A stretch of DNA of 64,000 nucleotides from Desulfovibrionales bacterium. Lineage in GTDB: Bacteria > Desulfobacterota > QYQD01. The stretch spans positions 39,474 to 103,473 of the forward strand of contig JAQURM010000008.1 in the NCBI GenBank assembly GCA_028715605.1, given 5' to 3'. Shown piece by piece: positions 32,629 through 58,994 of this stretch; the stretch's first letter is position 1; each line of letters begins with the position of its first letter. A model generated the notes under the pieces. It saw nothing but the letters and a program-made list of their open reading frames with translations, was not told where the DNA came from and did no database searches. The position numbers were made by a program, and so were the translations under genes.

Positions 32629-35073
32629 ATGTTTGGTTCTAACGCAAAGGGGAAAGAGGATGCCTTGAAAAGGGAGAAGATCGTTGTCCCGCTTTTACCG
32701 CTGCGTGATATAGTGATTTTCCCGCACATGGTAGCGCCGCTTTTTGTGGGAAGGGAGAAGTCCATCCAGGCATTGGAAGATGCTATGGGTCGAAAGGCGG
32801 ATCTTTTCCTTACAGCGCAAAAGGATGCCAAAAGAGACGAGCCCGGCGAAAGAGATATAGAACCCATTGGAACCATAGGCAGTATATTACAACTCCTGCG
32901 TCTGCCGGACGGTACGGTGAAACTCCTGGTCGAGGGTAAGAGGCGCGGGAAGATAACGCAATTCCTGCCCCATAAAAACTTCTTCCTGGTTGAAGTCGAG
33001 GAGATGGCTGATACGGGTGAGCATGGTCTGGAAAAAGAGGCGTTGGTGCGCACCGTACGTTCTACCTTTGAGGAGTATGCAAAATTTAACAAAAAGATAC
33101 CTTCAGAAGTACTGTTATCTATTGCTTCTATTGATGATGTCTCTAAGTTAGCCGACACCATGGCATCTCATTTGACCTTGCGCCTCGCAGACAAACAGGC
33201 CGTTCTGGAGACGTTGAATCTGGCCAAGCGTCTGGAAAAGCTTTATCACCTGATGTGCGCCGAGATAGAGGTCGCTCAGATCGAGCATCGCATAAAAGAC
33301 CGGGTCAAAAAGCAGATGGAGAAGACCCAGAAGGAATATTATCTCAGCGAACAGATGCGTGCCATCCAGAAGGAGATGGGCGGTAAAGATGACTTTAAAA
33401 GTGAGATGAATGAACTCGAGCAAAAGATTAAACGGAAGCGGATGTCGAAAGAGGCCGCAGCCAAGGTGCGTAATGAGTTCAAGAAACTGAAGATGATGTC
33501 GCCTATGTCCGCTGAGGCTACTGTTGTCCGTAATTATATAGACTGGTTGATTTCCCTCCCCTGGTATGAAAAGAGCAGGAATCAGATAGATATTAACGAG
33601 GCAGAGAGGATCCTGGAAGAGGATCATTATGGTCTTAAGAAGCCGAAGGAAAGGATTATTGAATACCTGGCGGTCCAGAGTCTTGTCAAAAAGATGAAAG
33701 GGCCGATTCTCTGTCTGGTAGGCCCGCCCGGAGTAGGAAAGACTTCTCTGGCCAAGTCCATAGCGCGGGCCACCAGGCGAAACTTTATCCGCTTATCTCT
33801 GGGTGGAGTAAGGGATGAGGCGGAAATCCGGGGTCACCGGCGGACATATATAGGGGCTATGCCCGGGAAGATAATACAATCTTTGCGCAAGGCCAAAGTC
33901 AATAACCCGGTCTTCTGTCTGGATGAAGTGGACAAGATGAGCATGGATTTTCGCGGCGATCCTTCCGCTGCCCTCCTGGAGGTGCTTGATCCGGAACAAA
34001 ATCATAGCTTTAATGACCATTATCTCGATATCGATTATGATTTATCGGAAATTCTCTTTATAACTACGGCTAATACCCTCCACGCTATTCCACCTCCCTT
34101 ACAGGACAGGATGGAGGTTATTCAACTTTCCGGATATACGGAAGAAGAGAAATTAAATATTGCCAGGAAATTTTTAATCCCAAAGCAGATTCAGGCTAAT
34201 GGTCTTCAGAAGGGTGACCTGGATATTACAGATAATGCTATTCTGGGAATCAGCCGCCGTTATACCCGGGAAGCCGGCGTCCGTAACTTAGAGAGGGAGA
34301 TTTCCAGTATATGCCGTAAGGTGGCCAAGGAGATTGCCAAAAACAAAGAGGAGAGGCGAAAGGCGGTGGTTAATGCCCAGTCCCTGGAGAAATATCTTGG
34401 TGTTCCTCGTTACCGCTATGGCCTGGCTGAAGAGAAGGATGAGATCGGGGTGGCTACCGGACTGGCCTGGACAGAGTTCGGCGGGGAGATACTGCAGATT
34501 GAAGCAGTTATCATGCCCGGGAAAGGCAACCTGACCATCACAGGTAAGCTGGGCGATGTCATGCAGGAATCGGCCAGGGCCGCCCTCAGCTATGTCCGTT
34601 CCAGGGCTGAAAGCCTTGGACTGGATGCTGATTTTTACCAGAAGATAGATATCCATATTCATGTGCCGGAAGGAGCTATCCCCAAAGATGGTCCGTCGGC
34701 CGGTATTACCATGGCCACGGCTATAACCTCGGCCTTGCTTAAGATCCCGGTCCATAAAGATACGGCCATGACAGGCGAAATTACATTGAGGGGCCGTGTA
34801 CTGCCTATTGGCGGGCTTAAAGAAAAGATGCTGGCGGCAAGGCGGAGTAATGTGAGTGCGGTGTTTATCCCTCGTGAGAATGAAAAAGACCTCAAAGATA
34901 TTCCCCCTAGGTTGATTAAATCTATCCAAGTGGAAATGGTTGAAAGCATGGACGAGGTGCTCAAGAAGGCGCTGGTATTGGATGACCCGGAGTCTTTATT
35001 CAAGGGTCCGGCATCCTCTCCGGTAGGCGTTTTCCCTAAAGGGGAGGTCCTTCCAGAAATTACCGCCCATTGA
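32629..35073 (+). CDS. lon: Lon protease (full-length LonA)
   Basis: N-terminal LON domain, GPPGVGKTS Walker [13 protein letters not shown] catalytic Ser; 814 aa. Confidence 0.95.
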
Positions 35074-42403: not shown

Positions 42404-42919
42404 ATGGAAATACTGAAGCTTGCTGCTATCTTGTTTGTGATAAACGGCCTGACTATCGGCGGTGGATATGCCATGGTGCCGTTGCTTCAAAAAGAGCTGG
42501 TAGAGAATCACCATTGGCTGACGAACAAGGAATTCATCGACGCCATCGCCATTGGCCAGGTTACACCGGGGCCGCTTACGGTCATGAACGCCTTCATGGG
42601 TTTTAAGGTCGGGGGCCTGCTTGGGGCGATCATAGCCATGGTGGCCAGCTACCTGCCGAGCATCATCATTGTCACTCTGGTAACGAGACACTACCTCCAG
42701 TACAAAGAGTCATGGATCGTCAAGGGCTCGTTCGCAGGGATCAAGCCAGCGATAGTGGGGCTCCTGGCGGCTGTACTCATCTTTCTGGGAAAGAGTTCCC
42801 TTACGAGCGTACCCTTGGGCGCTGTTGCGGCCGTGAGTTTCGGTCTTATCACTTTTACCAAGATCGATCCGACCTTCATTATCATCAGTTCCGGCATCCT
42901 GGGGGCTTTTCTGTTCTAG
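42404..42919 (+). CDS. chrA: Chromate transporter family protein, second half (short-chain ChrA)
   Basis: GGGYAMVPLLQKELVENHHWLTNKEF signature; 171 aa; adjacent to the first half. Confidence 0.8.
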   Translation: MEILKLAAILFVINGLTIGGGYAMVPLLQKELVENHHWLTNKEFIDAIAIGQVTPGPLTVMNAFMGFKVGGLLGAIIAMVASYLPSIIIVTLVTRHYLQYKESWIVKGSFAGIKPAIVGLLAAVLIFLGKSSLTSVPLGAVAAVSFGLITFTKIDPTFIIISSGILGAFLF

Positions 42920-44586: not shown

Positions 44587-45044
44587 CTATCGCCTCCCTT
44601 TTCATAAAATTAAGTTTTCAAAAGTTACTTCGGAACTAAGCCTATACTCCAGTCATCCCCCCCTTCTTTTAGTTAGCTTTCTGCCAAGCCGGTAAAAGTT
44701 AGGCTTCCACCGGCCAAAATGAATCTCGACTCACAATTGTTTTTGCAATAAATATGCCTATATTATTTTTAACAACAGAGCCCGAAGAGAATAACATTAA
44801 GAATCATTAAGTAGGACAGATGTCCCACTTGTCCTCCGGATGGGGTTTCCAGATAAACCCTATCTAACCCTTGTTATTAAATAAATTATCTGCGTTACCG
44901 GTGGTTACTTTCTGAGGGGTTATTTAAAATGTCTTGGAATCGACGTTTGTTCCCCGCATCAGACGATGGAGATACTGCCTTTTCAGCCCTAATTCCTTTG
45001 CTGCGCGGGAGCCAGGGATACCCGGCCCGGCATCGAGATATCTG

Positions 45045-45165
45045 TCACTTGCGGGGTGTCACCTGTCCGATGGCAATTGCGTCAATGGACTCCTTGTTGG
45101 TCAGCCAATGGTGATTCTGCACCGGTTGTTTCTGCAGCAGGGGTACCATGGCATATCCACCACCG
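45045..45165 (-). pseudogene. Relic fragment of the chrA second half (about 80% nt identity to 42455-42565), in inverted orientation
   Basis: Minus-strand translation ...GGGYAMVPLLQKQPVQNHHWLTNKESIDAIAIGQVTP matches ChrA 42404 residues 19-57. Confidence 0.7.
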
Positions 45166-45195
45166 GGATTAAGCTTGATAAATTCGCAGGATATG

Positions 45196-47100
45196 CATAA
45201 GATGACAGCTATAACACTAGATAAGGGGCCGGTTATCAGAGCTAAGAAGTTTCTCATTATTGCCGTAGGCGTTTTCATTCTTGTTTCCGGCATCATCGGT
45301 TATCTGGGCTATAGCGCCAATCAGGAGATTGAAAAGACCGTAACGGATCAATTCAATCGGCAACAGCTACTCCTGGCACGCAAGATAGCCCATGACATCA
45401 ATAACCACTTTAATTTTCTCGATACCATCTTACGGCGCGTCAATCAGTTCTGGCAGCGGGGTGGGAGGAACATAGAGACAATAGAGGAAGATATCACCTC
45501 GTTCTTTCCGCTGCTCAGGGGCTGGGATGTCCTGGCGATTGTGCATTTCGGCCGGGACGAAAAGTTCCCTGTGGTTTTTACCGAGCAGGGATTTACCGGC
45601 GCGGAGGGATTAGGAATCTATTATGACGATTACCGGCGATGGGGCAGTCGGCCGGAATACAGAGACAGCATAATAATCGGCCGGACCTTTCGGGCGGAAA
45701 AAGGTATTTTTAAGGACAGATGGCTGATGCTAATGGCCACGCCCACCTGGAAACGTGCCGCCGGGCAAAAGGGCGTTCCGGCCTGGAGGTTTGAGGGCCT
45801 GACTTTTATTGTCGTTGATCCTATAGGGATCGCGCAGCGCTATACCCGGGGCGTCCGTTCGGGTGCGACAGGCTACGGATGGGTAGTTGATGACCGGGGG
45901 ATTTTTCTGGCGCACTACGAGCAGACCTTTGTTGGCGAGGATTCCTTTACCGTCAGACAAAAGAAGAACCCGGATATCTCCTATGCGAGGATAAACAGGA
46001 TCGTGCGAGAGTATCTGCTCAAAGGCAAGGAAGGAACGGATTGGTATATCTCCGGATGGCACCGCGGGGTAACCGGTGAGATGAAAAAATTATTTGCCTA
46101 TAGCCCTGTTTTCCTATCCAAAGAGGATCGGGGCAATCTATGGTCGGTGGGGGTGACCGCCCCCGTGACCGAGGTCTATGGAATCATAGAGTCGGCCATC
46201 ATAAGACAATGGCTGATTGCAGGCATCTTTCAATTGATAGTATTTTCCTGCCTGGGTGTGGCCATTTATCTTTCCCTGCGCTGGTCACGGATTCTGGCTG
46301 CGGAGGTTGACGCCAAGACTGCTGACTTGAGGCTTTCTGAGGCGGAGGTGCGGCAGGAGAGGGATAAGGTCAAAGAGAGTATGCAAAAACTCATTGAGAT
46401 GCAGGAGAGGCTTGTCCGTTCGGAGCGTTTTGCGGCCATAGGAGAGGCGGCTGCTTACCTTTCGCACGAGATAAAAAATCCTTTGATGCTTATTGGTGGA
46501 TTCGCCGGCCAGGTAGAGAAATCCCTTTCAGACGATGATGCCAACCGGGAAAAATTAGGGATAATACAGGCCGAGACCAGACGTCTGGAGTTGATGTTGG
46601 CGGAGGTCAGAGACTTTACGCGTCCGGCCAGGCCGCAAAAGGAACTGAAAAACATCAATGGAGTCATTGAAGACACGTTAGCCCTTATGGAGAACAAAAT
46701 GATTGATAAGGGCATTGAGTATGAAAAAGCCTTGGATGACCGCCTGCCGGACGTACTCTTTGATCCTCAGCAGGTCAAGCAGGTATTGATTAACCTCATC
46801 AAGAATGCCATTGAGGCTATGCCGGAGGGTGGTAAACTGGTTGTCTCGTCCGGGCGTGAAGGCGGGCAGGTTAAGGTTGCAGTCCTGGATAGCGGTATGG
46901 GTATGCCCCATGAGGTGGCTAAGAAGATATTTGATCCGTTTTTTACGACCAAGAAAAAGGGAACCGGGCTGGGACTCGCTGTTTCTCGCAAGATCATGGA
47001 AGACCATGAGGGTGAAATCTCTGTTCAGAGCGAAGAAGGAAAGTGGACCAAGATTACTATTGCCTTGCCGATTAAACCGGTTAATATGGAAGCACGCTGA
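45196..47100 (+). CDS. Sensor histidine kinase (periplasmic Cache-like sensor, transmembrane, HisKA, HATPase_c)
   Basis: SHEIKNPL H-box; DSGMGMPHEV...GTGLGL G-boxes. The start is probably at MHKMTAI (or M at 45205); the track's 45148 start is antisense to the chrA relic. Confidence 0.8.
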   Translation, partial: HKMTAITLDKGPVIRAKKFLIIAVGVFILVSGIIGYLGYSANQEIEKTVTDQFNRQQLLLARKIAHDINNHFNFLDTILRRVNQFWQRGGRNIETIEEDITSFFPLLRGWDVLAIVHFGRDEKFPVVFTEQGFTGAEGLGIYYDDYRRWGSRPEYRDSIIIGRTFRAEKGIFKDRWLMLMATPTWKRAAGQKGVPAWRFEGLTFIVVDPIGIAQRYTRGVRSGATGYGWVVDDRGIFLAHYEQTFVGEDSFTVRQKKNPDISYARINRIVREYLLKGKEGTDWYISGWHRGVTGEMKKLFAYSPVFLSKEDRGNLWSVGVTAPVTEVYGIIESAIIRQWLIAGIFQLIVFSCLGVAIYLSLRWSRILAAEVDAKTADLRLSEAEVRQERDKVKESMQKLIEMQERLVRSERFAAIGEAAAYLSHEIKNPLMLIGGFAGQVEKSLSDDDANREKLGIIQAETRRLELMLAEVRDFTRPARPQKELKNINGVIEDTLALMENKMIDKGIEYEKALDDRLPDVLFDPQQVKQVLINLIKNAIEAMPEGGKLVVSSGREGGQVKVAVLDSGMGMPHEVAKKIFDPFFTTKKKGTGLGLAVSRKIMEDHEGEISVQSEEGKWTKITIALPIKPVNMEAR

Positions 47101-47194
47101 TATCCGTAGCTTGAGCGCAGGCGATTACTGCGGGTTGGAATAGCCGGCTTTAGTAATAAGGGTTATATACCGATCCCTATTTAAAAAGTGTATC

Positions 47195-49201
47195 ATGAAA
47201 TTTTTTGGTTCTAAAAAATCTGAGCAGATGCCGCATGAGGCAGAAATAGAGGATCTGCGCCTGGCCATCGATAAGGCGCACATGCCTGCCGAGGTGCAGG
47301 AAGTTGCCCTCCATGAGTTGAAAAAACTGTCCAAAATGGGACAGATGACCGCCGAATATGGCATCATACTGAACTACCTGGAGTATCTGATCTCCCTGCC
47401 GTGGGATAAGACAACTGAAGACAATTTAGACCTTGCCCGTGCCGAAACAATACTTCACCAGGATCACTATGGACTTGAAGATATAAAAGCCAGGATTCTT
47501 GAGTACCTCGCCGTCCGGTCATTGCGATCTAAGATTAAATACCGCATCATGGTGGCCGACGAAGACGAGAACGTCCGTAGAAATTTGCAGGATATGCTCG
47601 AAAAGGAAGGCTACACTGTGGTTACTGCTACCGATGGAACGGGGGCCCTCCGGTTAATCGAGTCTTCTGAGTTTGATTTAATATTGGCTGACTTAAAGTT
47701 GAAAGGTCTCGACGGCCTGGCGTTTCTGGAAAAGGCCAAGGCTACCTGGCCGGAAACCGAATTCATTATGATGTCCCGGTATGCTATTCTCGACTCTGCT
47801 GTAGAGGCCATAAAAAAAAGCGCCTTTCATTACCTGTCCAAACCCTTTAACACGTCGGAATTACAAGAAACCGTTAAGAACGCCCTGCAAAGAAAGATGT
47901 GCGTCCAGGATACAAAAAGCCCCATTCTTTGTTTTATGGGACCGCCGGGAACCGGAAAGACTTCCCTCGGCAGGTCGGTGGCACATGCCCTGGGACGCAA
48001 ATTTGTCCGGATTTCCTTGGCCGGCATGAAGGATGAGGCTGAAATCAGAGGCCACCGCCGCACCTATGCCGGAGCAATGCCCGGCCGAATTATCCACGAA
48101 ATTCGCCGCGCCGGGTATAAAAACCCCGTGCTTATGCTGGATGAAATAGACAAGATAGGTCAGGATTTCAGGGGCGATCCGGCATCTGCTCTCCTTGAAG
48201 TACTCGATCCCGAGCAGAATGATAAGTTTACAGATTATTATCTGGATGTCCCTTTCGATCTTTCAAAAGTCATGTTCATCACCACGGCCAACACCGCTGA
48301 TGGTATCCCCGGGGCGCTTCGTGACCGCCTGGAGATAGTGAAACTTTCCGGTTACACGGAAGAGGAGAAAAAAAATATTGCCACGCGATATATTATCCCG
48401 CGTCAGATCAGGGAAACCGGCCTAACGGCCTATCCGCCGGAGTTTACAGATGCGGCTCTATATAAAATTATTCGTGAATATACAAGGGAAGCAGGGGTAC
48501 GTGACTTAGAGAGACAAATTGGCTCTATTTGCCGAAAGATGGCGCGGGCGATTATTGCAGGGCCAGGACATAATATGTCTCGGCGAACTATATTCCCGGA
48601 TTCCATTGAGAAGTACCTTGGGCCGCGCAAGTACCTGTTCGAGGCCACAGAGGCCAAGAACCGCGTTGGCGTAACGACCGGACTGGTCTGGACGGAGGCC
48701 GGTGGCGATATCATCTTTGTCGAAGCTACCAAGATGAAAGGTCGTAAGAAGCTTATTATGACCGGCTCGCTTGGCGAAATTATGCAGGAGTCCGCCCAGG
48801 CGGCTCTCAGTTATATACGGTCCAATGCCTGTATTTTTAATATCGCAGAGAATTTCTTTGACTTCCAGGACATCCATATCCATGTTCCATCGGCCGCTGC
48901 ACCTAAGGAAGGGCCGTCGGCCGGGATCACTATAGCCCTGGCCCTGATCTCCGCACTCACTGAAAGACCGGCCAGGCGTGACGTGGCCATGACCGGAGAG
49001 TTGACCCTGACCGGACGGGTCTTACCCGTGGGGGCCATCAAAGAGAAGATACTGGCTGCGCGGAGGGCCGGGGTAAAAGTGGTCATTCTGCCCCAAAAGA
49101 ACAAAGTAGACGTGGATACGCTACCGGCTGACGCAAAAGATGGGATTAGGATTGTCTTTGTTGACAACCTTACAGAAATTGTAGACATAGTCCTGGAGTA
49201 G
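47195..49201 (+). CDS. Lon-protease paralogue lacking the N-terminal LON domain, with a response-regulator receiver (REC) domain inserted before the AAA+ module
   Basis: Residues 1-115 match the Lon pre-AAA helix (ILNYLEYLISLPW...HYGLEDIKARILEYLAV). Residues 120-235 form a canonical REC (MVADEDE, DLILADLKLKGLDG, MMS, SKPF). Then GPPGTGKTS Walker A, and the protease domain PKEGPSAGITIALA with K in AIKEKILAARRAG. Confidence 0.8.
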   Translation: MKFFGSKKSEQMPHEAEIEDLRLAIDKAHMPAEVQEVALHELKKLSKMGQMTAEYGIILNYLEYLISLPWDKTTEDNLDLARAETILHQDHYGLEDIKARILEYLAVRSLRSKIKYRIMVADEDENVRRNLQDMLEKEGYTVVTATDGTGALRLIESSEFDLILADLKLKGLDGLAFLEKAKATWPETEFIMMSRYAILDSAVEAIKKSAFHYLSKPFNTSELQETVKNALQRKMCVQDTKSPILCFMGPPGTGKTSLGRSVAHALGRKFVRISLAGMKDEAEIRGHRRTYAGAMPGRIIHEIRRAGYKNPVLMLDEIDKIGQDFRGDPASALLEVLDPEQNDKFTDYYLDVPFDLSKVMFITTANTADGIPGALRDRLEIVKLSGYTEEEKKNIATRYIIPRQIRETGLTAYPPEFTDAALYKIIREYTREAGVRDLERQIGSICRKMARAIIAGPGHNMSRRTIFPDSIEKYLGPRKYLFEATEAKNRVGVTTGLVWTEAGGDIIFVEATKMKGRKKLIMTGSLGEIMQESAQAALSYIRSNACIFNIAENFFDFQDIHIHVPSAAAPKEGPSAGITIALALISALTERPARRDVAMTGELTLTGRVLPVGAIKEKILAARRAGVKVVILPQKNKVDVDTLPADAKDGIRIVFVDNLTEIVDIVLE

Positions 49202-49217
49202 GTTCAGTTGCCGGTCG

Positions 49218-49279
49218 CCGGACGATTATAGTGAATGTCAGTAGTCAGTAGTCCTTTGTCACTGGAAAAAGATGCCAAT
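49218..49279. promoter_or_regulatory. Conserved roughly 60 bp intergenic motif, copy 2
   Basis: ccggacgattatagtgaatgtcagtagtcagtagtcctttgtcactggaaaaagatgccaat aligns with 21116-21178. Confidence 0.5.
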
Positions 49280-49522
49280 ACAGCCTCTATTTAGTTAGTT
49301 GGATTCCATTTGGACTTTGAGCTTTGGCATTTGTCATTCTTCTGACTCCTTACTTCCGTCTTCCCCCTCCTGCCCCCTGTATTCTATAACTTGTCTCCTT
49401 TTAGTTTCACCTGTCACCTGGTATTTTCAAAAAACCTGCCGTAAGTTTCCCGCGCAGGGTTTCTTATTAACATAAATCGAATTATTACAGTTAGTTATAC
49501 TTATGTCCATAACCGGACAAAT

Positions 49523-49539
49523 CTGGCACGAATCTTGTT
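49523..49539 (+). promoter_or_regulatory. Putative sigma-54 (-24/-12) promoter: cTGGCACGaatcTTGTt
   Basis: GG and the -12 element have the correct 11 nt spacing. The -12 reads TTGT rather than TTGC. Lies 90-110 bp upstream of the small ORF at 49631. Confidence 0.3.
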
Positions 49540-49630
49540 ATTAATATAAACAAAGGCTGGTTATTTGAGCATTGCGAACCCGGCGGGAGATAAACCCTGT
49601 CAAAAATATCAACTAACAGAGGAGGATGCC

Positions 49631-49801
49631 ATGAAAGGATTAATTAGAAGATTTGAGCAGTGGATGGTGGCGATTACTTTTGCTGAGGTCGGAGAATTCG
49701 ATACGGCAAGGGAGATCATGAATGAACCAGATCAACCTATGGACGTTCCTAGAAAGAGGCGGACAGATACCCCTTATATCCAGGCACAGCCGGGACGGTA
49801 A
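49631..49801 (+). CDS. Small hypothetical protein (56 aa) with a strong Shine-Dalgarno sequence
   Basis: GAGGAGG sits 6 nt upstream of ATG. Reads MKGLIRRFEQWMVAITFAEVGEFDTAREIMNEPDQ... The track's longer form starts at 49565. Confidence 0.3.
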   Translation: MKGLIRRFEQWMVAITFAEVGEFDTAREIMNEPDQPMDVPRKRRTDTPYIQAQPGR

Positions 49802-49968
49802 TGGAGTTTAAAGCACACCCAATGGCTAACTGCTTCGCCTTGGGCGGTTTTCCGATTAGCCGGTTTCAGGGATAGACCGGCTAATCGGGTAAGGATTAAA
49901 GTTAAAACGGGGAAGATCGGTTTTGATCTGCTGAACAGCCATATCCAGTGTCGGCGCAGACGTTAACT

Positions 49969-50400
49969 TTAAGAAGGCGTACCGGACGGTTGATTTGCCT
50001 CTTTCCTTAATCTGATGTTCTCTTTTTGTAACCGGCGATACCTCATAACCCTTTCTATTGTGAGCAGGATATGCTCCTTGCGGAAGGGCTTGGTTATATA
50101 GTCAAAGGCGCCATTTTTCATCGCCTCAACTGCCGATTCAATGGTTCCATAAGCGGTGATAACGACAAACGGTATCTCCAGCCCGCTCTTTTGAGCCTCT
50201 TCGATGATCTCCATCCCATCCTTTTCAGGCATGCGCAGGTCTGTGATTACCAAGTCGAAATCCCCCCCGGCAATTAATCCGGGAACCTCCAGAGGATTAC
50301 TTGTGGTTGTTACGTTATAATCGGTTTTGTCAGTGATAATGACCTCAAGCAGTTTAAGCATATCAGGTTCATCATCCACAATCAGAATTTTCTCGGCCAT
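49969..50400 (-). CDS. Stand-alone response-regulator receiver protein (REC + linker only; paralogue of the N-terminus of the NtrC-type regulator at 53887)
   Basis: ILIVDDEPDM, DLVITDLRMPEKDG, ITAYG, DYITKPF. About 55% identical to residues 1-135 of the sigma54 activator, with no AAA+ or HTH domain. Confidence 0.7.
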   Translation of the reverse strand: MAEKILIVDDEPDMLKLLEVIITDKTDYNVTTTSNPLEVPGLIAGGDFDLVITDLRMPEKDGMEIIEEAQKSGLEIPFVVITAYGTIESAVEAMKNGAFDYITKPFRKEHILLTIERVMRYRRLQKENIRLRKEANQPSGTPS

Positions 50401-50430
50401 GATGTCTTTTCCTCCAACTATTGAGTTCTC

Positions 50431-52659
50431 CTATCTATCAAAGGAGCACAAGAAAGCAGGCAAAGACACGATAAAGGTCGTCCCTTTCTTGTCACCTGCC
50501 TCCTCCGCAGTCTTTGTTATGAAGTTAATCGTTCCTCCGTACCCGTTGACTATATTGTAGGAAACCGTGAGTCCCAGACCAGTCCCTTCCCCAGTCCTTT
50601 TGGTAGTAAAAAATGGATCAAATATCTTTGTCCTGGACTCCGGCGGGATACCACAGCCGGTATCAGAAAAACATATCCGGACCAAATTATTATCCGTATC
50701 AAAGGCAGTAGAAACAGCCAGATCTCCCCCACCCGGCATAGCCCCTATGGCATTGTTTATCAGGTTGAGGAAGACCTGCTGAACCTGTGTGGGATCCGCC
50801 TTGACTTTAGGCAGATCAGGAACCAGGTCCAAGTTAACCTTGATTTTTTTCATCAGAAGTGTGTTCCCAACTACCTTAATGATATTTCCCAGCTCCTGGT
50901 TAATATCCGTAAGATCCTCGGCATACTCGGAGGCGCGGCTAAAACTCAAAAGCTGCGATACGATCCTTTCGCATACCTGTGCCTGGTGGATTATCCTTTT
51001 TAACATATCATGCCGCTCGTCTCCGGGAGGACATTTTTCCAACAGGACTTCGGAGAACCCCATGATAATAGCGATCGGATTGTTTATTTCATGAGCCACT
51101 CCGGCAGCCAGTAGCCCCAGTGATGCGAGCTTCTCGGTGTTGGCCATCTGACCGGCCATCTTGTTTTGTTCGGTAACATCGCGCGAGATGCCAAGCAGGG
51201 CCCTTACCACCCCAGTTGTGTCCTTTATAGGGATTAAGTGGGTGCTAAACCAGTATTCTTTCCCGCCGATCTCAGCCCGATGTTCGAGGTCCTGGGGTTC
51301 CCCAGCGTCAAATATCCTATGGATGGTCGCCAGGTTTAATTTATCGCAAACGCACATTTTGAGAAAATTCCGCCCTTCAATGGACCCGGGCGGGACACCG
51401 GACAGATTACCAGAAAGAAGGTTTATGGCATAACGGTTGATGGAAATGATATTTCCATCCCTGTCCAGGGAATAGATCATGTCCTCAGCATTCTCTACTA
51501 ACGATCGATAACGTTCTTCAGATCTTCTCAGGCTCCGTGTTTTTTCCTCTACTTCCTCGGAAAGCTTCTTTTCCCAGCGCCGCTCGTACATAAAAGCGGT
51601 CAGCCCTACCATAATGATGGATAGGACAATCACTCCATGCATAACATGTAGCCGCGTCAGATCCTTCTTAATGACCTCTTCTACTTCACTTATCGGGGCG
51701 ACAACAGCCACCGACCAGGAAGGCCGCGACCCGGGATGACCGACAATTACCGGTGTGTAGGCGATCAGCTTTTCTATAGGACCTTTGGTCTCCCGATGCC
51801 AGCCGGAAATATACCAACTGGTTCCCTCCCGGCCCGCGAGCATCCTTTCCTTTTGAATGCGATGGATGCGGACAAAGGATATTTTAGGCGCTTTTTTCGG
51901 GCGTACCTCAAATGCGTTTGCACCCATGAACTCTGCCAGTGGATGATATAAGAAGACCCCGCGGTCATCGATCACCCATGCATAGCCGGTCTCTCCTGAA
52001 CGGATATCCATTACAATCCTTTTTACGAAGGTCGTAATATCCAGGGTAACCTCTGTTATCCCGACGAAATTCCCCGTGGGCACCGGATGCGCTTCATCGA
52101 TCGACTCCTGATAGGTGGGTATGCCCATGGTGAGAAGCAACCTTCCCGGATAGCGCTCCTCGTCCCGAAAGGCATCGCTGACGAAGACCTTGTCCTTATT
52201 GTCTGTTGCCGAAGCAAGCTCAAGCGTATCTCTTAGACCTGCCCTGTGACTAACATCCAAAATGAAGTGTTTCCCATGGTTATCGACGGAATACTCCTTC
52301 TTTCCATCCTGATCGATGCGGGAGATCAAGAGGACACCGCTTTGCTTCAGAACAGACATGGTTATCTCTATCCGTCTCGCCCATGCCACGGGGTCAAGAT
52401 ACTGGAGGGAAGGGGAATAGTTTAACACCCGCAGCTCGTCGCAAATAAGTTCAAGGTTATTCTGTAGTTGCCGCGCTGCGTACCGGGCAAGGAGGAGTTG
52501 CTGTTGATTGAATTGCTCCACCGCGATCTTTCGCGTCTGCTTCTCCAAAAAGATGCTCAAAAAAAGCGCCCCGCCGAGTAATAAAACCATGGCCGCATAG
52601 ACAGCAATGGCTATACTCTTCCCTCTATAGGGGGAGGTGGTTTTTTGGGTAGTCGTCAT
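50431..52659 (-). CDS. Sensor histidine kinase (Cache-like periplasmic sensor, PAS, HisKA, HATPase_c); paralogue of 45196-47100
   Basis: AHEINNPI H-box; DTGCGIP...GTGLGL. The N-terminal sensor is about 45% identical to HK 45196. Confidence 0.85.
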   Translation of the reverse strand: MTTTQKTTSPYRGKSIAIAVYAAMVLLLGGALFLSIFLEKQTRKIAVEQFNQQQLLLARYAARQLQNNLELICDELRVLNYSPSLQYLDPVAWARRIEITMSVLKQSGVLLISRIDQDGKKEYSVDNHGKHFILDVSHRAGLRDTLELASATDNKDKVFVSDAFRDEERYPGRLLLTMGIPTYQESIDEAHPVPTGNFVGITEVTLDITTFVKRIVMDIRSGETGYAWVIDDRGVFLYHPLAEFMGANAFEVRPKKAPKISFVRIHRIQKERMLAGREGTSWYISGWHRETKGPIEKLIAYTPVIVGHPGSRPSWSVAVVAPISEVEEVIKKDLTRLHVMHGVIVLSIIMVGLTAFMYERRWEKKLSEEVEEKTRSLRRSEERYRSLVENAEDMIYSLDRDGNIISINRYAINLLSGNLSGVPPGSIEGRNFLKMCVCDKLNLATIHRIFDAGEPQDLEHRAEIGGKEYWFSTHLIPIKDTTGVVRALLGISRDVTEQNKMAGQMANTEKLASLGLLAAGVAHEINNPIAIIMGFSEVLLEKCPPGDERHDMLKRIIHQAQVCERIVSQLLSFSRASEYAEDLTDINQELGNIIKVVGNTLLMKKIKVNLDLVPDLPKVKADPTQVQQVFLNLINNAIGAMPGGGDLAVSTAFDTDNNLVRICFSDTGCGIPPESRTKIFDPFFTTKRTGEGTGLGLTVSYNIVNGYGGTINFITKTAEEAGDKKGTTFIVSLPAFLCSFDR

Positions 52660-52711
52660 AGGCTTAACTTGCGATTATCTATGCAGTTCAATTTGAAAAC
52701 CAAGGCGATGT

Positions 52712-53905
52712 GTGGTAAAAGGTGACAGACTTAAGCAAATTATTAATTACTTAAATTTCTTTATTAGTCAAGGAGATATTGGTGCTGGAGTTATGAAACA
52801 CTGCAAACGAAAAAGAGTCGCCCACTTTGAAGAAATCTGTCGTGCCTTAATTGATGGGACAGAAGACCTGATCTATATTCTGGATCGCAAGGGCCGCTAT
52901 ACCTTTATCAATCCATGGATGGCCCGATTCCTTTCCATGGACGTCGAACAGATTATCGGCCACTCCCTTTTATCATTCATGCCGGAGGTGGATGCCCAGG
53001 AACAGATCAGGTTAATCGACCAGATATACGCCGGCACAAAGAGTGTCAAAACGGAATTTACTATCCGGAAAGGAGACGGCGCCTTCTTGTTCAGCGCCAA
53101 CCTGGTACCCATCAGAGATGAAAAAGGAGATGTATGCGGCGTCCTGGGCATTGCCAGAGACATCACCGAGACCCGTAATTTTGAAAAACAACTGATAACC
53201 ACCGAAAAACTCGCCTCGCTGGGCACGCTGGCCGCGGGAGTGGCTCACCAGATAAATAACCCCCTGTCGATTATCTTGGGCTTTTGTGATCTCTTGCTCG
53301 AAAAGACAGATCCGGAGAGTCTAATTCATCGGGACCTTCGGACTATTGAACGTCACGGGCTGTACTGTAAGAAGGTGGTGGAAAATCTTCTCGGCTTCGC
53401 ACGCATTGCGGAAGGAGACGAGGTGTCGGCAGATGTCAACCATGCCCTGGAGATGATCCTGGGTATAATAGACCATACCCTGCTCATCCACGGCATTACT
53501 GTGGAGAGAGACCTCGCCCCTTCTCTTCCCCTGATCTGTGGAGACACCAAACAGCTTCAACAGGTTTTTCTGAGTCTGATCACCAATGCTGTTGAGGCTA
53601 TGAAGAACGGGGGGGCGCTTGGCATCTCGACCGGGATGGACGGGTCTTCTTACGTCTTTATCCGTATTTCGGACACCGGGGATGGCATAGACGAAAACTG
53701 CCTGGATAAGATATTTGATCCCTTTTTCACCACTAAACCGGAAGGCGAAGGGACGGGATTGGGCCTTTCTGTAAGCTATGGAATTATACAAAAGTACGGC
53801 GGGACTATTTCCTGTGAAAGCAAAACAAGCAAGCCATCGGGGACTAACTTTACCATAAAGTTGCCTATATTCAGAAGGAGCACAAGATGTCAGAACGGAT
53901 ATTGA
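52712..53905 (+). CDS. Cytoplasmic PAS-domain sensor histidine kinase
   Basis: PAS region, AHQINNPL H-box, DTGDGIDE...GTGLGL. Confidence 0.85.
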   Translation: MVKGDRLKQIINYLNFFISQGDIGAGVMKHCKRKRVAHFEEICRALIDGTEDLIYILDRKGRYTFINPWMARFLSMDVEQIIGHSLLSFMPEVDAQEQIRLIDQIYAGTKSVKTEFTIRKGDGAFLFSANLVPIRDEKGDVCGVLGIARDITETRNFEKQLITTEKLASLGTLAAGVAHQINNPLSIILGFCDLLLEKTDPESLIHRDLRTIERHGLYCKKVVENLLGFARIAEGDEVSADVNHALEMILGIIDHTLLIHGITVERDLAPSLPLICGDTKQLQQVFLSLITNAVEAMKNGGALGISTGMDGSSYVFIRISDTGDGIDENCLDKIFDPFFTTKPEGEGTGLGLSVSYGIIQKYGGTISCESKTSKPSGTNFTIKLPIFRRSTRCQNGY

Positions 53906-55287
53906 TCGTGGATGATGAGTCCGATATGCTGGAACTTCTCCGAAGGATTGTAGAGAAAAACACCGCCTATGAAGTCTTGACCTGCTCTAATCCGCTGGCC
54001 GTTATGGACTTACTGAAGGAGAACCCGTGTGCACTAGTCATTTCAGACCTTAAGATGCCGGGGATGGATGGCATTAGTACCCTCGAACAAGTCAAACAAT
54101 TAGATGAAAGCACAGCGGTCATTATCATGACCGCTTTCGGTACGATCGAGACTGCAATTGACGCCATGCGCAAAGGTGCCTTTGACTATATCACCAAACC
54201 TTTCCGCAAGGAGAAGATTCTCGTCACCATTGACAAGGCCCTCGAATGGCACCGACTACGTACTGAAAACGAGCGCCTAAAGCAGAAACTCGAAGAAACT
54301 ATGCAATATGGGACGATCATTGGATCGAGTCCGATTATGAAGCAGATTTATGAAAAAATCAACCAGGTTGCCAAGACATCCGCGACAGTCTTGATTACCG
54401 GGGAAAGTGGTTGTGGGAAAGAATTAGTGGCGAGAGCCATCCATGCCCAGAGCCTCCGTAGTAATTATAAAATTGTCCCTGTAAGCTGCTCCGCCCTCCC
54501 TGAGTCTTTGATTGAAAGTGAGCTTTTTGGACATCTGAAGGGGTCCTTTACCGGTGCGATAAGGGAACACAAGGGCCTGATCGAAGAAGCCGAAAACGGT
54601 ACACTATTCCTGGACGAAATTGGTGACTTAAGTCTGCTTATCCAGGTCAAACTCCTTCGTGTTATCCAGGAAGGAGAATTCAAAAAGGTCGGTGATAGCA
54701 AGATCACTAAGGCCAACGTCCGCATCATATCGGCCACCCACCGGAACCTTCTAAAAATGATCAAGGAGAGAACCTTCCGGGAAGACCTCTATTACCGTCT
54801 TAATGTCATCCATATTCACCTGCCTGCGCTACGCGACCGCAAGGAAGACATCCCTATCCTCGCCCACTATTTCCTGGCTAAATACAGCAGCCTCAATAAC
54901 AAGGACATCAAGGGCTTCTCTCCGGGGGCGCTTGCCGCTTTAAAGTCAGATGACTGGCCCGGCAATATCAGACAACTGGAAAATGTGATCGAAAGGGCTG
55001 TGATACTCTGTTCAGGCAACCGGCTCGACACGGAAAATCTGTTTTCCGCCGATTCCGTCTCAGGGCTGCAAGAAACCACAGACGCGGTTCTTACCCTTCC
55101 ATACAAGGATGCCCGGGAAAGATCGATCGAAGAATTTAATCGCCGCTATATTTCCTACGTCCTGGCCCGGCATTCGGGCAACGTATCCCGGGCTGCCATG
55201 GAATCCGGATTAAAACGGCAGTACCTGCACCGCCTTATGAGAGACTACGGCATCCATTCGGCCGGTTTTAAGGCCGCGCAAGAATAA
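53887..55287 (+). CDS. Sigma-54-dependent response regulator (NtrC family: REC + AAA+ sigma54-activation + HTH)
   Basis: REC motifs; GESGCGKE Walker A; GAFTGA-like (GSFTGA) loop; C-terminal Fis-type HTH. Confidence 0.9.
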   Translation: MSERILIVDDESDMLELLRRIVEKNTAYEVLTCSNPLAVMDLLKENPCALVISDLKMPGMDGISTLEQVKQLDESTAVIIMTAFGTIETAIDAMRKGAFDYITKPFRKEKILVTIDKALEWHRLRTENERLKQKLEETMQYGTIIGSSPIMKQIYEKINQVAKTSATVLITGESGCGKELVARAIHAQSLRSNYKIVPVSCSALPESLIESELFGHLKGSFTGAIREHKGLIEEAENGTLFLDEIGDLSLLIQVKLLRVIQEGEFKKVGDSKITKANVRIISATHRNLLKMIKERTFREDLYYRLNVIHIHLPALRDRKEDIPILAHYFLAKYSSLNNKDIKGFSPGALAALKSDDWPGNIRQLENVIERAVILCSGNRLDTENLFSADSVSGLQETTDAVLTLPYKDARERSIEEFNRRYISYVLARHSGNVSRAAMESGLKRQYLHRLMRDYGIHSAGFKAAQE

Positions 55288-55440: not shown

Positions 55441-55998
55441 ATGTATCTTGGTTTTGTCATGATGGCACAGGTGTTGAATATGGAAGCGGGCAGATGGGAA
55501 AGGGACTACCAGATGGTTGAAAAACGTATGCGGGAGATTATGTCGGAAGATTTTTTGACTACTGCTAAATCTCAGACTCTCCCGGAAGCGATTAAAATGC
55601 TTTGTAGCGCCCGCGGGAAGCGTGTTGTGCCCGGGGCCGTTGTTGTTTTTGACCAGAATCAATCTTTCTGGGGGCTGCTTACCCTGGAATGTGTTCTTGA
55701 AAGCGTACGCCCGTCTTTTATGAAAAGTTCAAACCAGCGGGGTGTGGTAACGTGGAACGGTATTTTGCTGGAGTCATGCCAGAAACTGGCCGGGCTTAAA
55801 GTAGAAGATGTGGCAGATAAGGAAGTCCCCCGGCTTGAACCTGAGGACAGATTGATTAAGGTTATCCACCTGTTTCTCAAAACCAACCGCCGGGAATTAC
55901 CCGTATTAGAGGACGATACCGTAGTGGGCCTGGTGGATGTGAGCAGGATAATCCAGGAGATTAATGAGCTGATTACCAAATTTTGTCAGGGGAGATGA
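55441..55998 (+). CDS. CBS-pair domain protein
   Basis: Two CBS-like segments. The real start may be the internal M (MVEKRMREIM...). Confidence 0.5.
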   Translation: MYLGFVMMAQVLNMEAGRWERDYQMVEKRMREIMSEDFLTTAKSQTLPEAIKMLCSARGKRVVPGAVVVFDQNQSFWGLLTLECVLESVRPSFMKSSNQRGVVTWNGILLESCQKLAGLKVEDVADKEVPRLEPEDRLIKVIHLFLKTNRRELPVLEDDTVVGLVDVSRIIQEINELITKFCQGR

Positions 55999-56005
55999 TC
56001 TCACT

Positions 56006-56416
56006 TTGATCCCACGGATACTTATCGCCGACAGACAGACGGAGATTCTGGAACTCTTTACAAGGATACTGGAGGGAGACAGTTCTGTCTCATGTTACAC
56101 AAGTGACGACAATGAGGATTTGGTTCGTCAAATCCGGGAGGTATCCTTTGCCATCATGCTGCTTGATGTCCAGATGGTTCTCTACAATAACTTTGCACTC
56201 CTGAGAACGATACGGGAGATATCTCCGGCAACAACGATCTTGATCATGGGATATCTGGAGGAGCTGGAAGCCATGAAGAAGGGGGTCAATTGCGGGGCCT
56301 CCGGGTATATTATCAAGCCGGTCATGGCTAGGGACCTCCGCAAGGAGGTAGGGAAATGCCTCCTCTCTCCCACGCCAAGAAGGGCAGAACCACCGGCAGG
56401 GCAGGTTAGCACGTAA
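56006..56416 (+). CDS. Degenerate receiver-like (REC) domain protein
   Basis: TTG start. ILIADRQ, MLLDVQM, ILIMGY, YIIKPV resemble REC motifs with a non-canonical acidic pocket. Confidence 0.45.
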   Translation: MIPRILIADRQTEILELFTRILEGDSSVSCYTSDDNEDLVRQIREVSFAIMLLDVQMVLYNNFALLRTIREISPATTILIMGYLEELEAMKKGVNCGASGYIIKPVMARDLRKEVGKCLLSPTPRRAEPPAGQVST

Positions 56417-56556
56417 AATTTCACTATTATTTAAAAGGAGGTAGGGACTTATGGTCAGAATAAGATTTCTCTAAATATGGAGGGCATAACCATACCAAAG
56501 AAGTTCTGTTATTTTTATGATGATTCTCAATCTCTCGAAGCAAGGAGGTTTTCTGA

Positions 56557-57819
56557 ATGAAACTATTCAAAACAATTTATCAGGCGTTAGTTATGGCATC
56601 CGCCGCGCACGCCAGATGGGACTATGAAGCATCTATGTCCATCCTGAAAAACAGGAAAAAGTTACTGATATTAATTGCTCTCTCGCTGCCGATCCTGGCC
56701 GTAATGGTGACCTCGGCGGCAGACCTTCCGCACATCCTGGGCGGCAAGAAGGCCTATGCCCCGGCCACCTATACGACTACTATTTTTCTGTCCTCGATAG
56801 CCATCGGCCTCATCGCCGGACTGATTACGGGTTGCATCGGCGCAGGAGGCGGCTTTGTTATCGCCCCGGCCCTGATGAGCGCCGGTATCAAGGGTATCAC
56901 GGCGGTGGGTACGGACCTCTTCCACATCTTTGCCAAGGCCATCATGGGGACGGCCGTACACAAGAAACTCGGCAACGTCTCCACCGGGCTGGCCGTGGCC
57001 TTTGTCTTTGGCTCTATCTTTGGCGTCCTGGGCGGCGGAGTTATCAACCGGGCCCTCTATAACATGAACCCCCTTATCAGTGATACCTTCATCAGTATTA
57101 TCTATGCCGTGCTGTTAGGCTTCCTGGGTATCTATGCCATGCTGGACTTTGTGAAAGCCAGCAAGAAAGGCGACGAGGGTGGGGCCCACGGCGGTGGCCC
57201 GGTTGGCGAGTTGACCGGTCTGCCTGTAAGGATGCAATCCATAAAGATCCCGCCCATGATCGCCTTTGACGAGGATGTAGTCCCGGGCGGAAGAAAACTA
57301 TCTTTTTGGATAGTCGCCATTATGGGGTCCTTTGTCGGTTTGGTGGCGGCCATCATGGGTGTCGGCGGCGGCTTTCTGACCTTTCCGATATTTGTCTACA
57401 TGCTCGGTGTGTCTTCATTTACCACGGTGGGTACTGATATTCTTCAGATCATCATGACCGCCGGCTTTGCCTCTATCTCGCAATATGCCATCTATGGCTT
57501 TGTCTTCTACACCCTGGCCATGGGGATGCTCCTCGGCTCCCTTATCGGCATCCAGGTCGGGGCGTTGACGACCAAGGTGGTGCGCGGCATCTATATCCGG
57601 GCCTTTTATGCCATGGCCGTGTTGGCCGGTTTCTTCAACCGGCTCTTTGCCCTTCCGAAGAAATTCAACGAATTAGGATGGATCGATATAGCCAAATCGA
57701 CCGCCAGTATGTTCGACACCATCGGCATCATCCTGTTCTTTATAGTGGTGACGACCTTCGGCGTGTTTGTCTTTGGCAAATTCTTCGGAAACCTTAAAGA
57801 ACTGAGAGGGGAGGGATAA
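56557..57819 (+). CDS. TauE/SafE-family transporter with internally duplicated domain; right paralogue of 27614-28879
   Basis: About 93% aa identity to the left copy. Confidence 0.8.
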   Translation: MKLFKTIYQALVMASAAHARWDYEASMSILKNRKKLLILIALSLPILAVMVTSAADLPHILGGKKAYAPATYTTTIFLSSIAIGLIAGLITGCIGAGGGFVIAPALMSAGIKGITAVGTDLFHIFAKAIMGTAVHKKLGNVSTGLAVAFVFGSIFGVLGGGVINRALYNMNPLISDTFISIIYAVLLGFLGIYAMLDFVKASKKGDEGGAHGGGPVGELTGLPVRMQSIKIPPMIAFDEDVVPGGRKLSFWIVAIMGSFVGLVAAIMGVGGGFLTFPIFVYMLGVSSFTTVGTDILQIIMTAGFASISQYAIYGFVFYTLAMGMLLGSLIGIQVGALTTKVVRGIYIRAFYAMAVLAGFFNRLFALPKKFNELGWIDIAKSTASMFDTIGIILFFIVVTTFGVFVFGKFFGNLKELRGEG

Positions 57820-57822
57820 ACC

Positions 57823-58536
57823 ATGTTGGTAAAAAACACAAAGGCATTCAACCTGGGGCTGCTCTTGTTAGTCTCTTTTGCCATAGTATTTTACGTTATC
57901 ATGTTTGTACCCTGTTTTAAGGGAAAGACTACCATTATCTATGCGGATGACATGTTCAACTCCCTGGCCAAGGGATCGACTTACTTTATCCCGAAGTACA
58001 TGGAGAGTACACAGAAATTCGTCGGCAGACCGCTGGAGATGACCATAAAGCTCAAGAATGCGGCCGAGGCCGAAAAAGCGGCCATACTTTTTAGTAAAAA
58101 CGGCTCGAATGCCGTGGTAGCAGAAGATAAGGTCACTCTAAGCGGCGGAGACTTTGGCAAGACGCTGCTGGTCGCGGAGAACGACGCAGACCTTATGTTT
58201 AATGACCGGGGGGCGGAGGTGGCCGCCAAATACGGTTACGATGAGAAGGAGGTCATGTATATCTGGCATTCGGCCTTAAAGTCCCTAATCAAGGAGCTGG
58301 AAAAACAGGAGCGCTTTGAAGGCTCGATCTTTCTCGGCGATGTTTTGACCAAGGTCATAGAACCCGGCTACAATTTTTACGGTATAAAGCCGGAGAAGGT
58401 CAAGGACCATATCGGCCTGCTGGTGGGATTTCTGGGCTTCTATGTCATCTATACCCTGTGGTTTGGTTATTCCATCTATGAATTGTTTAATGGAATAGGC
58501 CTGACCATGACCAAATCCAAGGCCAAGAAGGAATAA
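57823..58536 (+). CDS. Membrane-anchored hypothetical protein (237 aa); right paralogue of 26897-27610
   Basis: About 85% aa identity to the left copy. Confidence 0.6.
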   Translation: MLVKNTKAFNLGLLLLVSFAIVFYVIMFVPCFKGKTTIIYADDMFNSLAKGSTYFIPKYMESTQKFVGRPLEMTIKLKNAAEAEKAAILFSKNGSNAVVAEDKVTLSGGDFGKTLLVAENDADLMFNDRGAEVAAKYGYDEKEVMYIWHSALKSLIKELEKQERFEGSIFLGDVLTKVIEPGYNFYGIKPEKVKDHIGLLVGFLGFYVIYTLWFGYSIYELFNGIGLTMTKSKAKKE

Positions 58537-58559
58537 AAAACCTAAGACAGGAGGTAAAC

Positions 58560-58994
58560 ATGAAGATATTAGTGCCGATCGACGGTTCCAAATATGCCAT
58601 GGAGGCGGTCAAGATGGTCTCCGAGCTGGCCAGGGCCACGGGCGCTCAGGTGACCCTTATGACCGTAACGCCCTCTATTGCCGATATAGATATCGAATAT
58701 ACGGCCCGTGAACGGGAATCTCTGGAACAGAAAACCACGGCTTATGGAGAAAATGTCCTGGAACAGGCCGAAAAAGTGCTTGGTGCAACGGGATTAATTC
58801 CAAAGACCCTCATGATGGCATCAACCTCGGTAGCCGATGCTATCATATCGGCGGCCAAAAAGGGCAAGTTTGACCTTATTGCCGTAGGCAGCCGAGGATT
58901 AGGGGCCACGGCCCGTTTTATCATGGGTGGCGTGGCCTCGCGGGTGGTTAATCACGCCCCCTGCTCGGTGCTGGTGGTAAGGATGGAAAAATAG
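58560..58994 (+). CDS. Universal stress protein (single UspA domain); right paralogue of 26168-26602
   Basis: About 80% aa identity to the left copy. Confidence 0.85.
   Translation: MKILVPIDGSKYAMEAVKMVSELARATGAQVTLMTVTPSIADIDIEYTARERESLEQKTTAYGENVLEQAEKVLGATGLIPKTLMMASTSVADAIISAAKKGKFDLIAVGSRGLGATARFIMGGVASRVVNHAPCSVLVVRMEK

Follow-up and report, generated by a model that had tools for sequence, protein, structure and literature searches.

How can a Lon protease come to carry a two-component receiver in the middle of its own polypeptide, and what would such a receiver do there? The question is raised by a gene at 47195-49201 of a 64,000-nucleotide (nt) stretch of Desulfovibrionales DNA (the window, to which all coordinates refer unless a relative's locus is named), which encodes a 668-amino-acid (aa) protein designated here REC-Lon (residue numbers are those of this protein). 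It is 100% identical to a protein from a Desulfovibrionales metagenome-assembled genome (MAG) that bears the annotation "endopeptidase La" (P0001). A sequence-only reading had described the product as a paralogue of housekeeping Lon that lost its N-terminal substrate domain, gained a complete receiver (REC) domain ahead of the Walker A motif and, with the sensor histidine kinase (HK) encoded just upstream, forms a two-component system whose output is proteolysis. The best-supported reading of our analysis, to which we assign a probability of roughly 0.7, is that REC-Lon is a phospho-switched protease with a restricted set of substrates.

The architecture is borne out by profile matches and by two kinds of alignment. 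Pfam assigns Response_reg to residues 118-227, AAA (PF00004) to 245-382, Lon_lid (PF22667) to 407-456 and Lon_C to 468-667. With 87.8 bits the receiver match (PF00072) exceeds its cut-off of 30.2; its E value is 7e-25, and it spans profile positions 1-110 of 111; the protease match (PF05362) scores 271 bits with an E value of 6.5e-81. The substrate-binding domain LON_substr_bdg (PF02190) is not matched by Pfam in REC-Lon, while the housekeeping Lon of the window (32629..35073) scores 180.8 bits for it. The sigma54-interaction domain (PF00158) is likewise not matched by Pfam, the AAA+ module being of Lon type. With NCBIfam, REC-Lon passes the endopeptidase La model TIGR00763 (733.4 bits vs a cut-off of 608), with the match falling in two stretches, and stays below the stricter NF008053 (603.6 vs 891). 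The same interruption is seen in BLASTP against the housekeeping Lon, which confirms the claimed kinship in two blocks. Residues 15-120 correspond to Lon 257-362 at 42% identity, and in a second block, at 51% identity, the true Lon homology starts at about residue 240 (Lon 355) and ends at 663 (Lon 778). Between them the receiver forms a clean insertion of about 126 aa, bounded by "...LEYLAV(R/Q)SL" and "xKxPILCxxGPPG", and the same insertion is seen when the protein is aligned by MAFFT with 120 relatives.

The N-terminal deletion is less extensive than the sequence-only reading had supposed. The globular N domain and the long helix are gone, but about 100 aa comprising the three-helix bundle (NTD3H) and the first AAA+ helix, alpha0, are kept. 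This remnant aligns to chain residues 8-107 of the N-truncated crystal construct of B. subtilis Lon (PDB code 3M6A), and in cryo-electron microscopy structures of Lon this portion of the N region stays joined to the motor. The NTD3H of Y. pestis Lon (residues 253-305) makes a pore above the ATPase channel, with Y294 and W297 docking the PS1 beta-hairpin (Shin et al. 2020, PMC7239648). The equivalents of these two residues in REC-Lon are Y61, which is invariant, and Y64, and M51 corresponds to the pore residue Met284; in the alignment with the 120 relatives M51 is not conserved.

The residues on which receiver, ATPase and protease functions depend are in place. The phosphoacceptor geometry is intact, as had been claimed, with the acidic pocket D122-E123-D124, the acceptor D166 (in LILADLK), S194 (in IMMS) and K216 (in SKPF). 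Among the 120 relatives D166 is invariant, and D122, D/E123, S/T194 and K216-P217 are invariant or at least 90% conserved. The ATPase retains the Walker A motif GPPGTGKT (G249-T256), Walker B D316-E317, the pore-loop Y291, the sensor-1 N366, the arginine finger R378 and the sensor-2 R436. All reach the same level of conservation except N366, which is invariant in a 40-sequence alignment and falls below 90% among the 120 relatives. The Ser-Lys dyad (S575 and K618) is invariant in both sets. Judged by these positions, nothing in the receiver, the ATPase or the protease looks inactivated. One could still imagine a degenerate pseudo-receiver that serves as a structural or oligomerization module, with control exerted by partner binding (for example, by a small FAEAGEF protein, described below): the window receiver is devoid of several subfamily signatures and such domains are common, one of them lying nearby at 56006. 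The retention and conservation of the acidic pocket and of the S/T194 and K216-P217 positions, together with the invariance of D166, make this quite improbable.

An AlphaFold2 model computed from the 40-sequence alignment (mean predicted local distance difference test, pLDDT, of 78; predicted template-modeling score, pTM, of 0.62) has a canonical (beta-alpha)5 receiver at residues 117-240 with pLDDT of 74-90, so that profile and model agree on the receiver fold. Five helices make up the N remnant (11-27, 32-46, 53-67, 80-90 and 95-112), of which the last is alpha0; four residues separate it from beta1 of the receiver. At the other end, three residues lie between the receiver alpha5 (220-240) and the AAA+ strand beta1 (244-248). 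These short joints argue for a receiver that is tightly spliced into the motor and not tethered by a long linker. The nearest solved receivers are those of Spo0F, NtrC, NtrC1 and DctD, with the likeness to NtrC1 and DctD including the alpha5 linker; none of the solved Lons has an insert of this kind. The extreme N terminus of the protein (47195-47227, residues 1-11, MxFFKKSxEK) is predicted to be disordered (pLDDT <50) despite its family-wide conservation, with M1, F4 and K8 conserved at 90% or more.

REC-Lon is not a solitary protein. A search with the window protein returned PF00072 together with Lon_C, in about 666 aa, in 120/120 of the best clusters (90% identity), which come from Desulfovibrionales MAGs, Ca. 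Desulfofervidus, Thermodesulfovibrio spp. (including the isolate Thermodesulfovibrio aggregans) and other Nitrospirota. A second search from the 49%-identical representative P0128 gave another 120/120, mostly from Desulfobulbaceae and including the isolate Desulfobulbus propionicus DSM 2032; D. vulgaris was not among the matches listed. Architecture and length (about 666-682 aa) are therefore common to 240/240 clusters among the matches listed. Among representatives at 50% identity, searched exhaustively, only about two to three clusters have this architecture; P0128 is the only separate REC-Lon representative confirmed by domain scan, and for the fragments P0126 and P0193 the indication is a sequence match that extends across the REC region. 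The other top matches are ordinary LonA or tandem-AAA Lons. In a neighbor-joining tree built from the AAA+/protease part only (residues 240-666), 42/42 REC-bearing sequences are monophyletic with no REC-less Lon within, which indicates a single origin; the window protein groups with P0002 and P0008. The source of the window is a metagenome-assembled genome, and a chimera of a response regulator and a lon gene, created by assembly or annotation, has to be considered. Nothing was found in its favor, and it is effectively excluded by the recurrence of the architecture in independent assemblies and isolate genomes, by the position of the insertion inside a continuous Lon alignment and by the monophyly of the REC-bearing Lons. 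The window also holds a canonical clpP-clpX-lon cluster (30732-35073, +) with the full-length housekeeping LonA (814 aa), so that REC-Lon is an extra specialized paralogue and no replacement.

The tandem-AAA Lons of the representative search (P0121, P0122, P0124, P0125, P0127, P0129 and P0130; 889-1379 aa) carry two to three tandem Lon-type AAA+/lid modules and a single Lon_C. They scored above the REC-Lons and may be real or misassembled. As sensor fusions they were rejected, their additional parts being AAA modules.

The sequence-only reading had known of no characterized REC-Lon fusion. This stands as far as biochemistry is concerned, for no biochemical or structural study of a REC-Lon was found in the literature; but the fusion itself was noted in 2011 and tied genetically to its neighbors in 2023. 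Rajeev et al. (2011, PMC3333781) called D. vulgaris DVU3303 a response regulator "containing a lon protease", grouped it with a kinase and a sigma54 activator in a three-component system, and proposed phosphorylation-dependent proteolysis. The same study reports co-occurring orthologues in Thermodesulfovibrio yellowstonii and others, lists DVU3303 in its supplement under the TIGR name "ATP-dependent protease La, truncation", and places it divergent from DVU3301/3302, with the sigma54 enhancer-binding protein (EBP) DVU3305 binding the DVU3301/3303 intergenic region. DVU3303-3305 show pairwise cofitness above 0.9 and a chlorate phenotype (Trotter et al. 2023, PMC10102598). DVU3303 resembles the REC-Lons in being encoded with an HK and a sigma54 EBP response regulator, beside membrane and UspA genes, and the Thermodesulfovibrio REC-Lons (60-61% identity to that of the window) show exactly the DVU3303-3305 layout. 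The putative orthology with DVU3303 is drawn from description, layout and this Thermodesulfovibrio link. The window copy differs in that it has no adjacent HAMP kinase and EBP and is preceded by a dCache kinase instead. It is a somewhat rewired REC-Lon of the DVU3303 type, a kind noticed and genetically linked before and biochemically uncharacterized. New with respect to the literature are the paralogy of its receiver with that of the activator, the FAEAGEF small proteins behind sigma54-type promoters, and the atypical copy of the window.

What the receiver is wired to is seen best in the relatives. Eight loci were read, of which seven have readable flanks (L081 and L083-L088), the eighth (L089) being a 2.8-kb contig. 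All seven readable loci hold a sigma54 EBP response regulator, at least one TauE and a Usp, usually in a divergent operon. An HK is visible in six of them, of HAMP type in L081, L084, L085, L087 and L088 and REC-fused in L083; the contig of L086 begins at the EBP and shows no kinase. This layout agrees with the description of DVU3298-3305. The kinases of L081 and L083-L085 are mutually orthologous, with 34-56% identity (47-56% among L081, L083 and L085). Counted by locus, REC-Lon has an orthologous kinase, HAMP-type or REC-fused, as its neighbor in 5/7. In these same four loci the receiver of REC-Lon is 53-62% identical to that of the adjacent EBP; REC-Lon receivers are 46-62% identical among themselves and 29-48% identical to other receivers in the same loci. 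Receiver and EBP receiver have in common the signatures NLEHxLKKE (alpha1), GYAT (after beta4) and KPFKL(D/E)E. The alpha1 helix is the main kinase-specificity surface of a receiver. Paralogy and a near-identical alpha1 argue that one kinase feeds both outputs, and REC-Lon in the relatives is one branch of a pathway from a kinase to a sigma54 activator and a REC-Lon, with a regulon of TauE, Usp and small proteins.

The same close paralogy, with the single fitness pattern of kinase, EBP and REC-Lon, would also fit a receiver whose main role is that of a phosphate sink or a competitor: as a mimic of the activator's receiver it would drain or buffer phosphoryl groups from the shared kinase and so tune the transcriptional branch, with proteolysis constitutive or secondary. 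Such a sink would have no need of the invariant Walker A and B motifs, pore loop, arginine finger and S575/K618 dyad across the 120 relatives. The rigid alpha5-beta1 joint of the model suggests allosteric coupling instead, and the window has no partner EBP with a matching receiver. We consider this explanation improbable, though less so than a pseudo-receiver.

The regulon attached to REC-Lon has a signature of its own. A 56-aa protein encoded downstream of the REC-Lon gene, with GGAGG 7 nt before its ATG, is annotated elsewhere as a hypothetical protein (P0395), and a homologue search gave at least four near-identical matches. Its N-terminal motif has the form "xxhxxhxxAh(S/T)FAEAGEFDTAREIh", also written ...A[VI][ST]FAEAGEFDTAREI..., and occurs one to four times per locus in 8/8 scanned REC-Lon loci (the window, L081 and L083-L088). 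In 1.14 Mb of sequence from 80 ordinary Lon loci, translated in all six frames, the motif is absent. These 80 loci came from a scan with the whole REC-Lon protein that had keyed on Lon-core peptides (e.g., DPEQNDKF); in them residues 16-667 were matched over only about 524 aa. They gave no REC-Lon context and serve as the negative control for the motif and for the sigma54-type element described next. The motif is carried by proteins of 55-66 aa or forms the N terminus of proteins of 140-200 aa. No Pfam family matched the FAEAGEF proteins, and a "Usp-like" label for the longer ones was dropped for that reason. They are candidate substrates, degrons or regulators of REC-Lon.

A relaxed sigma54-type element, TGGCA[CT]-N5-TTG, lies 20-130 nt upstream of 10/15 FAEAGEF open reading frames (ORFs) in the relatives, the remainder being mostly internal operon genes, and precedes two operon-leading genes that have no FAEAGEF motif. 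The -12 part is often TTGA or TTGT and not TTGC. In the 80 control loci the background is 36 matches per 2.28 Mnt. The canonical TGGCAC-N5-TTGCW (up to two mismatches) is not enriched across the window (23 observed vs 28 expected), and only the relaxed, position-specific pattern is informative. In the window, such an element stands before the 56-aa gene and another heads a row of genes that is the counterpart of the TauE/Usp operon of the relatives. As the latter element lies within the ORF 55441..55998, the probable start of the CBS gene is the ATG at 55513. The SFVHG small transmembrane (TM) protein of the relatives' operons is absent from the window. The receiver encoded in this row (56006-56416, +) has Arg for the second acidic-pocket residue (LIADRQ) and aligns Gly to the Thr/Ser position; it is probably a pseudo-receiver.

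Which kinase would then serve the REC-Lon of the window? The Cache-type sensor kinase reported upstream is there, as a dCache/HisKA/HATPase_c protein by Pfam (HK 45148), encoded on the same strand and ending 94 nt before the ATG of REC-Lon, and no terminator-like site was found in this gap. Neither a HAMP-type HK nor an EBP with a closely paralogous receiver was found at the window locus. The pairing of HK 45148 with REC-Lon is drawn from adjacency in the window genome only. Of the readings available, a two-component system that ends in proteolysis fits best; in the relatives it is no simple pair, the kinase leading to an activator as well as to REC-Lon.

It is possible, though we doubt it, that the REC-Lon of the window is wired to the PAS kinase 52712 or the dCache-PAS kinase 50431, or is an orphan, and would still be phospho-regulated; its place next to HK 45148 would then be incidental. 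Compared with the kinases of L083-L085, HK 45148 shows the lowest similarity among the three window kinases (vs that of L081 it is marginally the closest), and the closest subclade varies, with the gene of P0002 preceded by a metallophosphoesterase-like gene. Moreover, a sigma54/TauE/Usp island with an HK-EBP pair of its own lies 3.5-10 kb downstream. What speaks for HK 45148 is the short same-strand gap and an alpha1 of the window receiver that departs from the consensus of the family, which a change of partner would lead one to expect; in addition, the window receiver is only 29-30% identical to the receivers served by the other local kinases. The neighborhood is fluid within the closest subclade, as the case of P0002 demonstrates, and the window copy is an atypical family member, an example of partner rewiring. 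Upstream of P0002, L089 encodes at 2-331 (+) a metallophosphoesterase-like C terminus (…VFGHT…), neither kinase nor activator.

Our preferred reading, a phospho-switched protease, can be put in mechanistic terms. REC-Lon would be a hexameric, LonA-type ATP-dependent serine protease in which the globular N domain has been lost and a receiver gained in the alpha0-beta1 loop. A sensor HK would phosphorylate D166; in the window this would most simply be the co-transcribed dCache kinase 45148, and in the relatives the HAMP-type kinase would serve both REC-Lon and the sigma54 activator with its near-identical receiver. The ensuing change in alpha4-beta5-alpha5 may be relayed through the long alpha5 into beta1 and Walker A, and ring assembly or the ATPase, hence proteolysis, would be switched, whether by activation or by inhibition, in analogy to the receiver-controlled AAA+ ring of the NtrC1/DctD activators. 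Since the N domain is gone, the substrates are probably a few dedicated proteins of the same stress regulon under sigma54 promoters, which would comprise TauE, Usp and the small FAEAGEF proteins, and the role is probably not general quality control.

Several observations weigh against this reading. No experiment on phosphotransfer to any REC-Lon, or on its phospho-control, was found in the literature. The genetic tie is less telling than it seems, as DVU3303, DVU3304 and DVU3305 follow in this order on one strand with DVU3303 first, and by our own reasoning transposon polarity could account for the cofitness of the protease gene. In the window neither partner is of the conserved type, HK 45148 being only 29-34% identical to the kinases of the relatives and the receiver of EBP 53887 only 30% identical to that of REC-Lon, and the closest relative (P0002, 75% identity) has no kinase upstream of its REC-Lon. 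The window receiver is also the most diverged of those compared, with DD changed to DE, a conserved T to S, GYAT to RYAI and KPFKLDE to KPFNTSE. Finally, with a pTM of 0.62, the inter-domain geometry of the model is uncertain.

A more far-reaching version holds that REC-Lon goes back to a single event, the copying of a sigma54 activator's receiver into a truncated LonA, that one kinase could then drive transcription and proteolysis of the same regulon, and that FAEAGEF is a dedicated degron or adaptor that replaces the N domain. We regard this version as speculative and, taken as a whole, unlikely; if true, it would describe a self-contained, phosphorylation-switched "make and destroy" module.

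Table 1 Features of the REC-Lon locus in the window and of the loci of relatives (L081 and L083-L088, in coordinates of those loci).
Feature	Position	Strand	Basis or remark
REC-Lon gene, 668 aa, ATG start	47195..49201	+	ORF; Pfam and NCBIfam domains
Retained Lon N-terminal remnant, residues 1-112: NTD3H and AAA+ helix alpha0 (DHYGL...LEYLAV)	47195..47530	+	Alignment with housekeeping Lon
Inserted REC, residues ~117-236	47543..47902	+	PF00072; AlphaFold2 fold; phospho-acceptor D166 at 47690-47692
Lon-type AAA+ module with lid, residues 240-467	47912..48595	+	PF00004, PF22667; ~51% identity to housekeeping Lon
Lon_C (S16) protease domain, residues 468-668	48596..49198	+	PF05362; S575 at 48917-48919, K618 at 49046-49048
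Sensor HK, TM-dCache-TM-HisKA-HATPase_c, candidate phosphodonor	45148..47100	+	Pfam; start at 45148 or 45196
PAS HK (52712-53905) and sigma54 EBP response regulator (53887-55287)	52712..55287	+	Pfam; sole EBP near REC-Lon
Sigma54-type -24/-12 element TGGCACgaatcTTGtt (TGGCAC-N5-TTG)	49524..49539	+	91 nt upstream of the 56-aa gene
56-aa protein, N-terminal motif ...MVAITFAEVGEFDTAREIM..., signature gene of REC-Lon loci	49631..49801	+	Motif scan
Sigma54-type element, promoter-like	55463..55478	+	Heads the CBS/REC/TauE/unknown/Usp row
Gene row: CBS, degenerate REC (56006-56416), TauE (56557-57819), unknown (57823-58536), Usp (58560-58994)	55463..58994	+	Pfam
FAEAGEF ORFs, L081	10028-10195, 7424-7846		
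FAEAGEF ORF, L083	5748-5915		
FAEAGEF ORFs, L084	13179-13379, 12435-13037		
FAEAGEF ORFs, L085	10071-10247, 7136-7630		
FAEAGEF ORF, L087	14913-15110		
FAEAGEF ORF, L088	7445-7621		
Sigma54-type element, L081	7888		
Sigma54-type elements, L083	7799, 5965		
Sigma54-type elements, L084	13450, 4888		
Sigma54-type elements, L085	10292, 1133		
Sigma54-type element, L086	7166		
Sigma54-type element, L087	15146		
Sigma54-type element, L088	7675		

The surroundings of the gene form a signaling island with further paralogies. HK 45148-47100 (+) and the kinase at 50431-52659 (-) have paralogous periplasmic dCache regions (33% identity over 380 aa) that share the motifs FNxQQLLLAR, GYxWVxDDRGxFL and WYISGWHR, so two branches of the island may sense related ligands. 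A single-domain receiver at 49969-50400 (-) is 51% identical to the receiver of the EBP at 53887-55287 (+), and between their respective kinases, 50431 and 52712, the identity over PAS-HisKA-HATPase is 43%. The two receivers look like a second paralogous pair, possibly of another branched pathway. Directly upstream of HK 45148, and divergent from it, lies a gene for a phosphate-selective porin O/P (43072-44586, -), with a sigma54-like element aGGCAt-N5-TTGCA at 44744-44759 (-), about 158 nt before the porin start; chromate-transporter halves are found at 41872-42919. No Rfam match was obtained in 44000-56600.

Accounts of how proteolysis by Lon is regulated usually invoke degrons on the substrate, adaptors or allosteric ligands. 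A Lon motor with its own two-component receiver would link environmental sensing directly, in cis, to the destruction of proteins. Two Desulfovibrio genomics papers have pointed to the family and, as a single clade with a small and well-defined gene set, it offers a tractable system for studying the control of an HCLR-clade AAA+ ring by a receiver, the choice of substrates without the N domain and the coordination of transcription with proteolysis by one kinase. For the window itself, what is gained is mainly a better annotation, "response-regulator Lon" where plain "endopeptidase La" stood, and a case of rewired partners.

Comparison with known systems places REC-Lon between three groups. With canonical LonA of E. 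coli, Y. pestis, M. taiwanensis and B. subtilis (PDB codes 6U5Z, 6ON2, 7FD4 and 3M6A) it has in common the NTD3H, alpha0, an HCLR-clade AAA+ module, the lid and the S16 Ser-Lys protease. While canonical LonA presents an N-terminal substrate-binding domain of about 250 aa and a long helix, REC-Lon has neither, and carries before beta1 the 126-aa receiver that canonical LonA lacks. With the regulators NtrC1, DctD and NtrC it shares an NtrC-like receiver whose long alpha5 runs into the AAA+ module, and phosphorylation governing ring assembly or the ATPase is a plausible shared logic. Those regulators combine an N-terminal receiver, a sigma54-interaction AAA+ module and a DNA-binding domain, whereas in REC-Lon the receiver is internal, the AAA+ module is of Lon type, the DNA-binding domain is missing and the output would be proteolytic. 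RssB and CpdR also couple two-component phosphorylation to AAA+ proteolysis, and REC-Lon gives weak NCBIfam matches to them at the level of the receiver. Both are separate adaptors that act on ClpXP in trans, whereas the receiver of REC-Lon is part of the Lon polypeptide.

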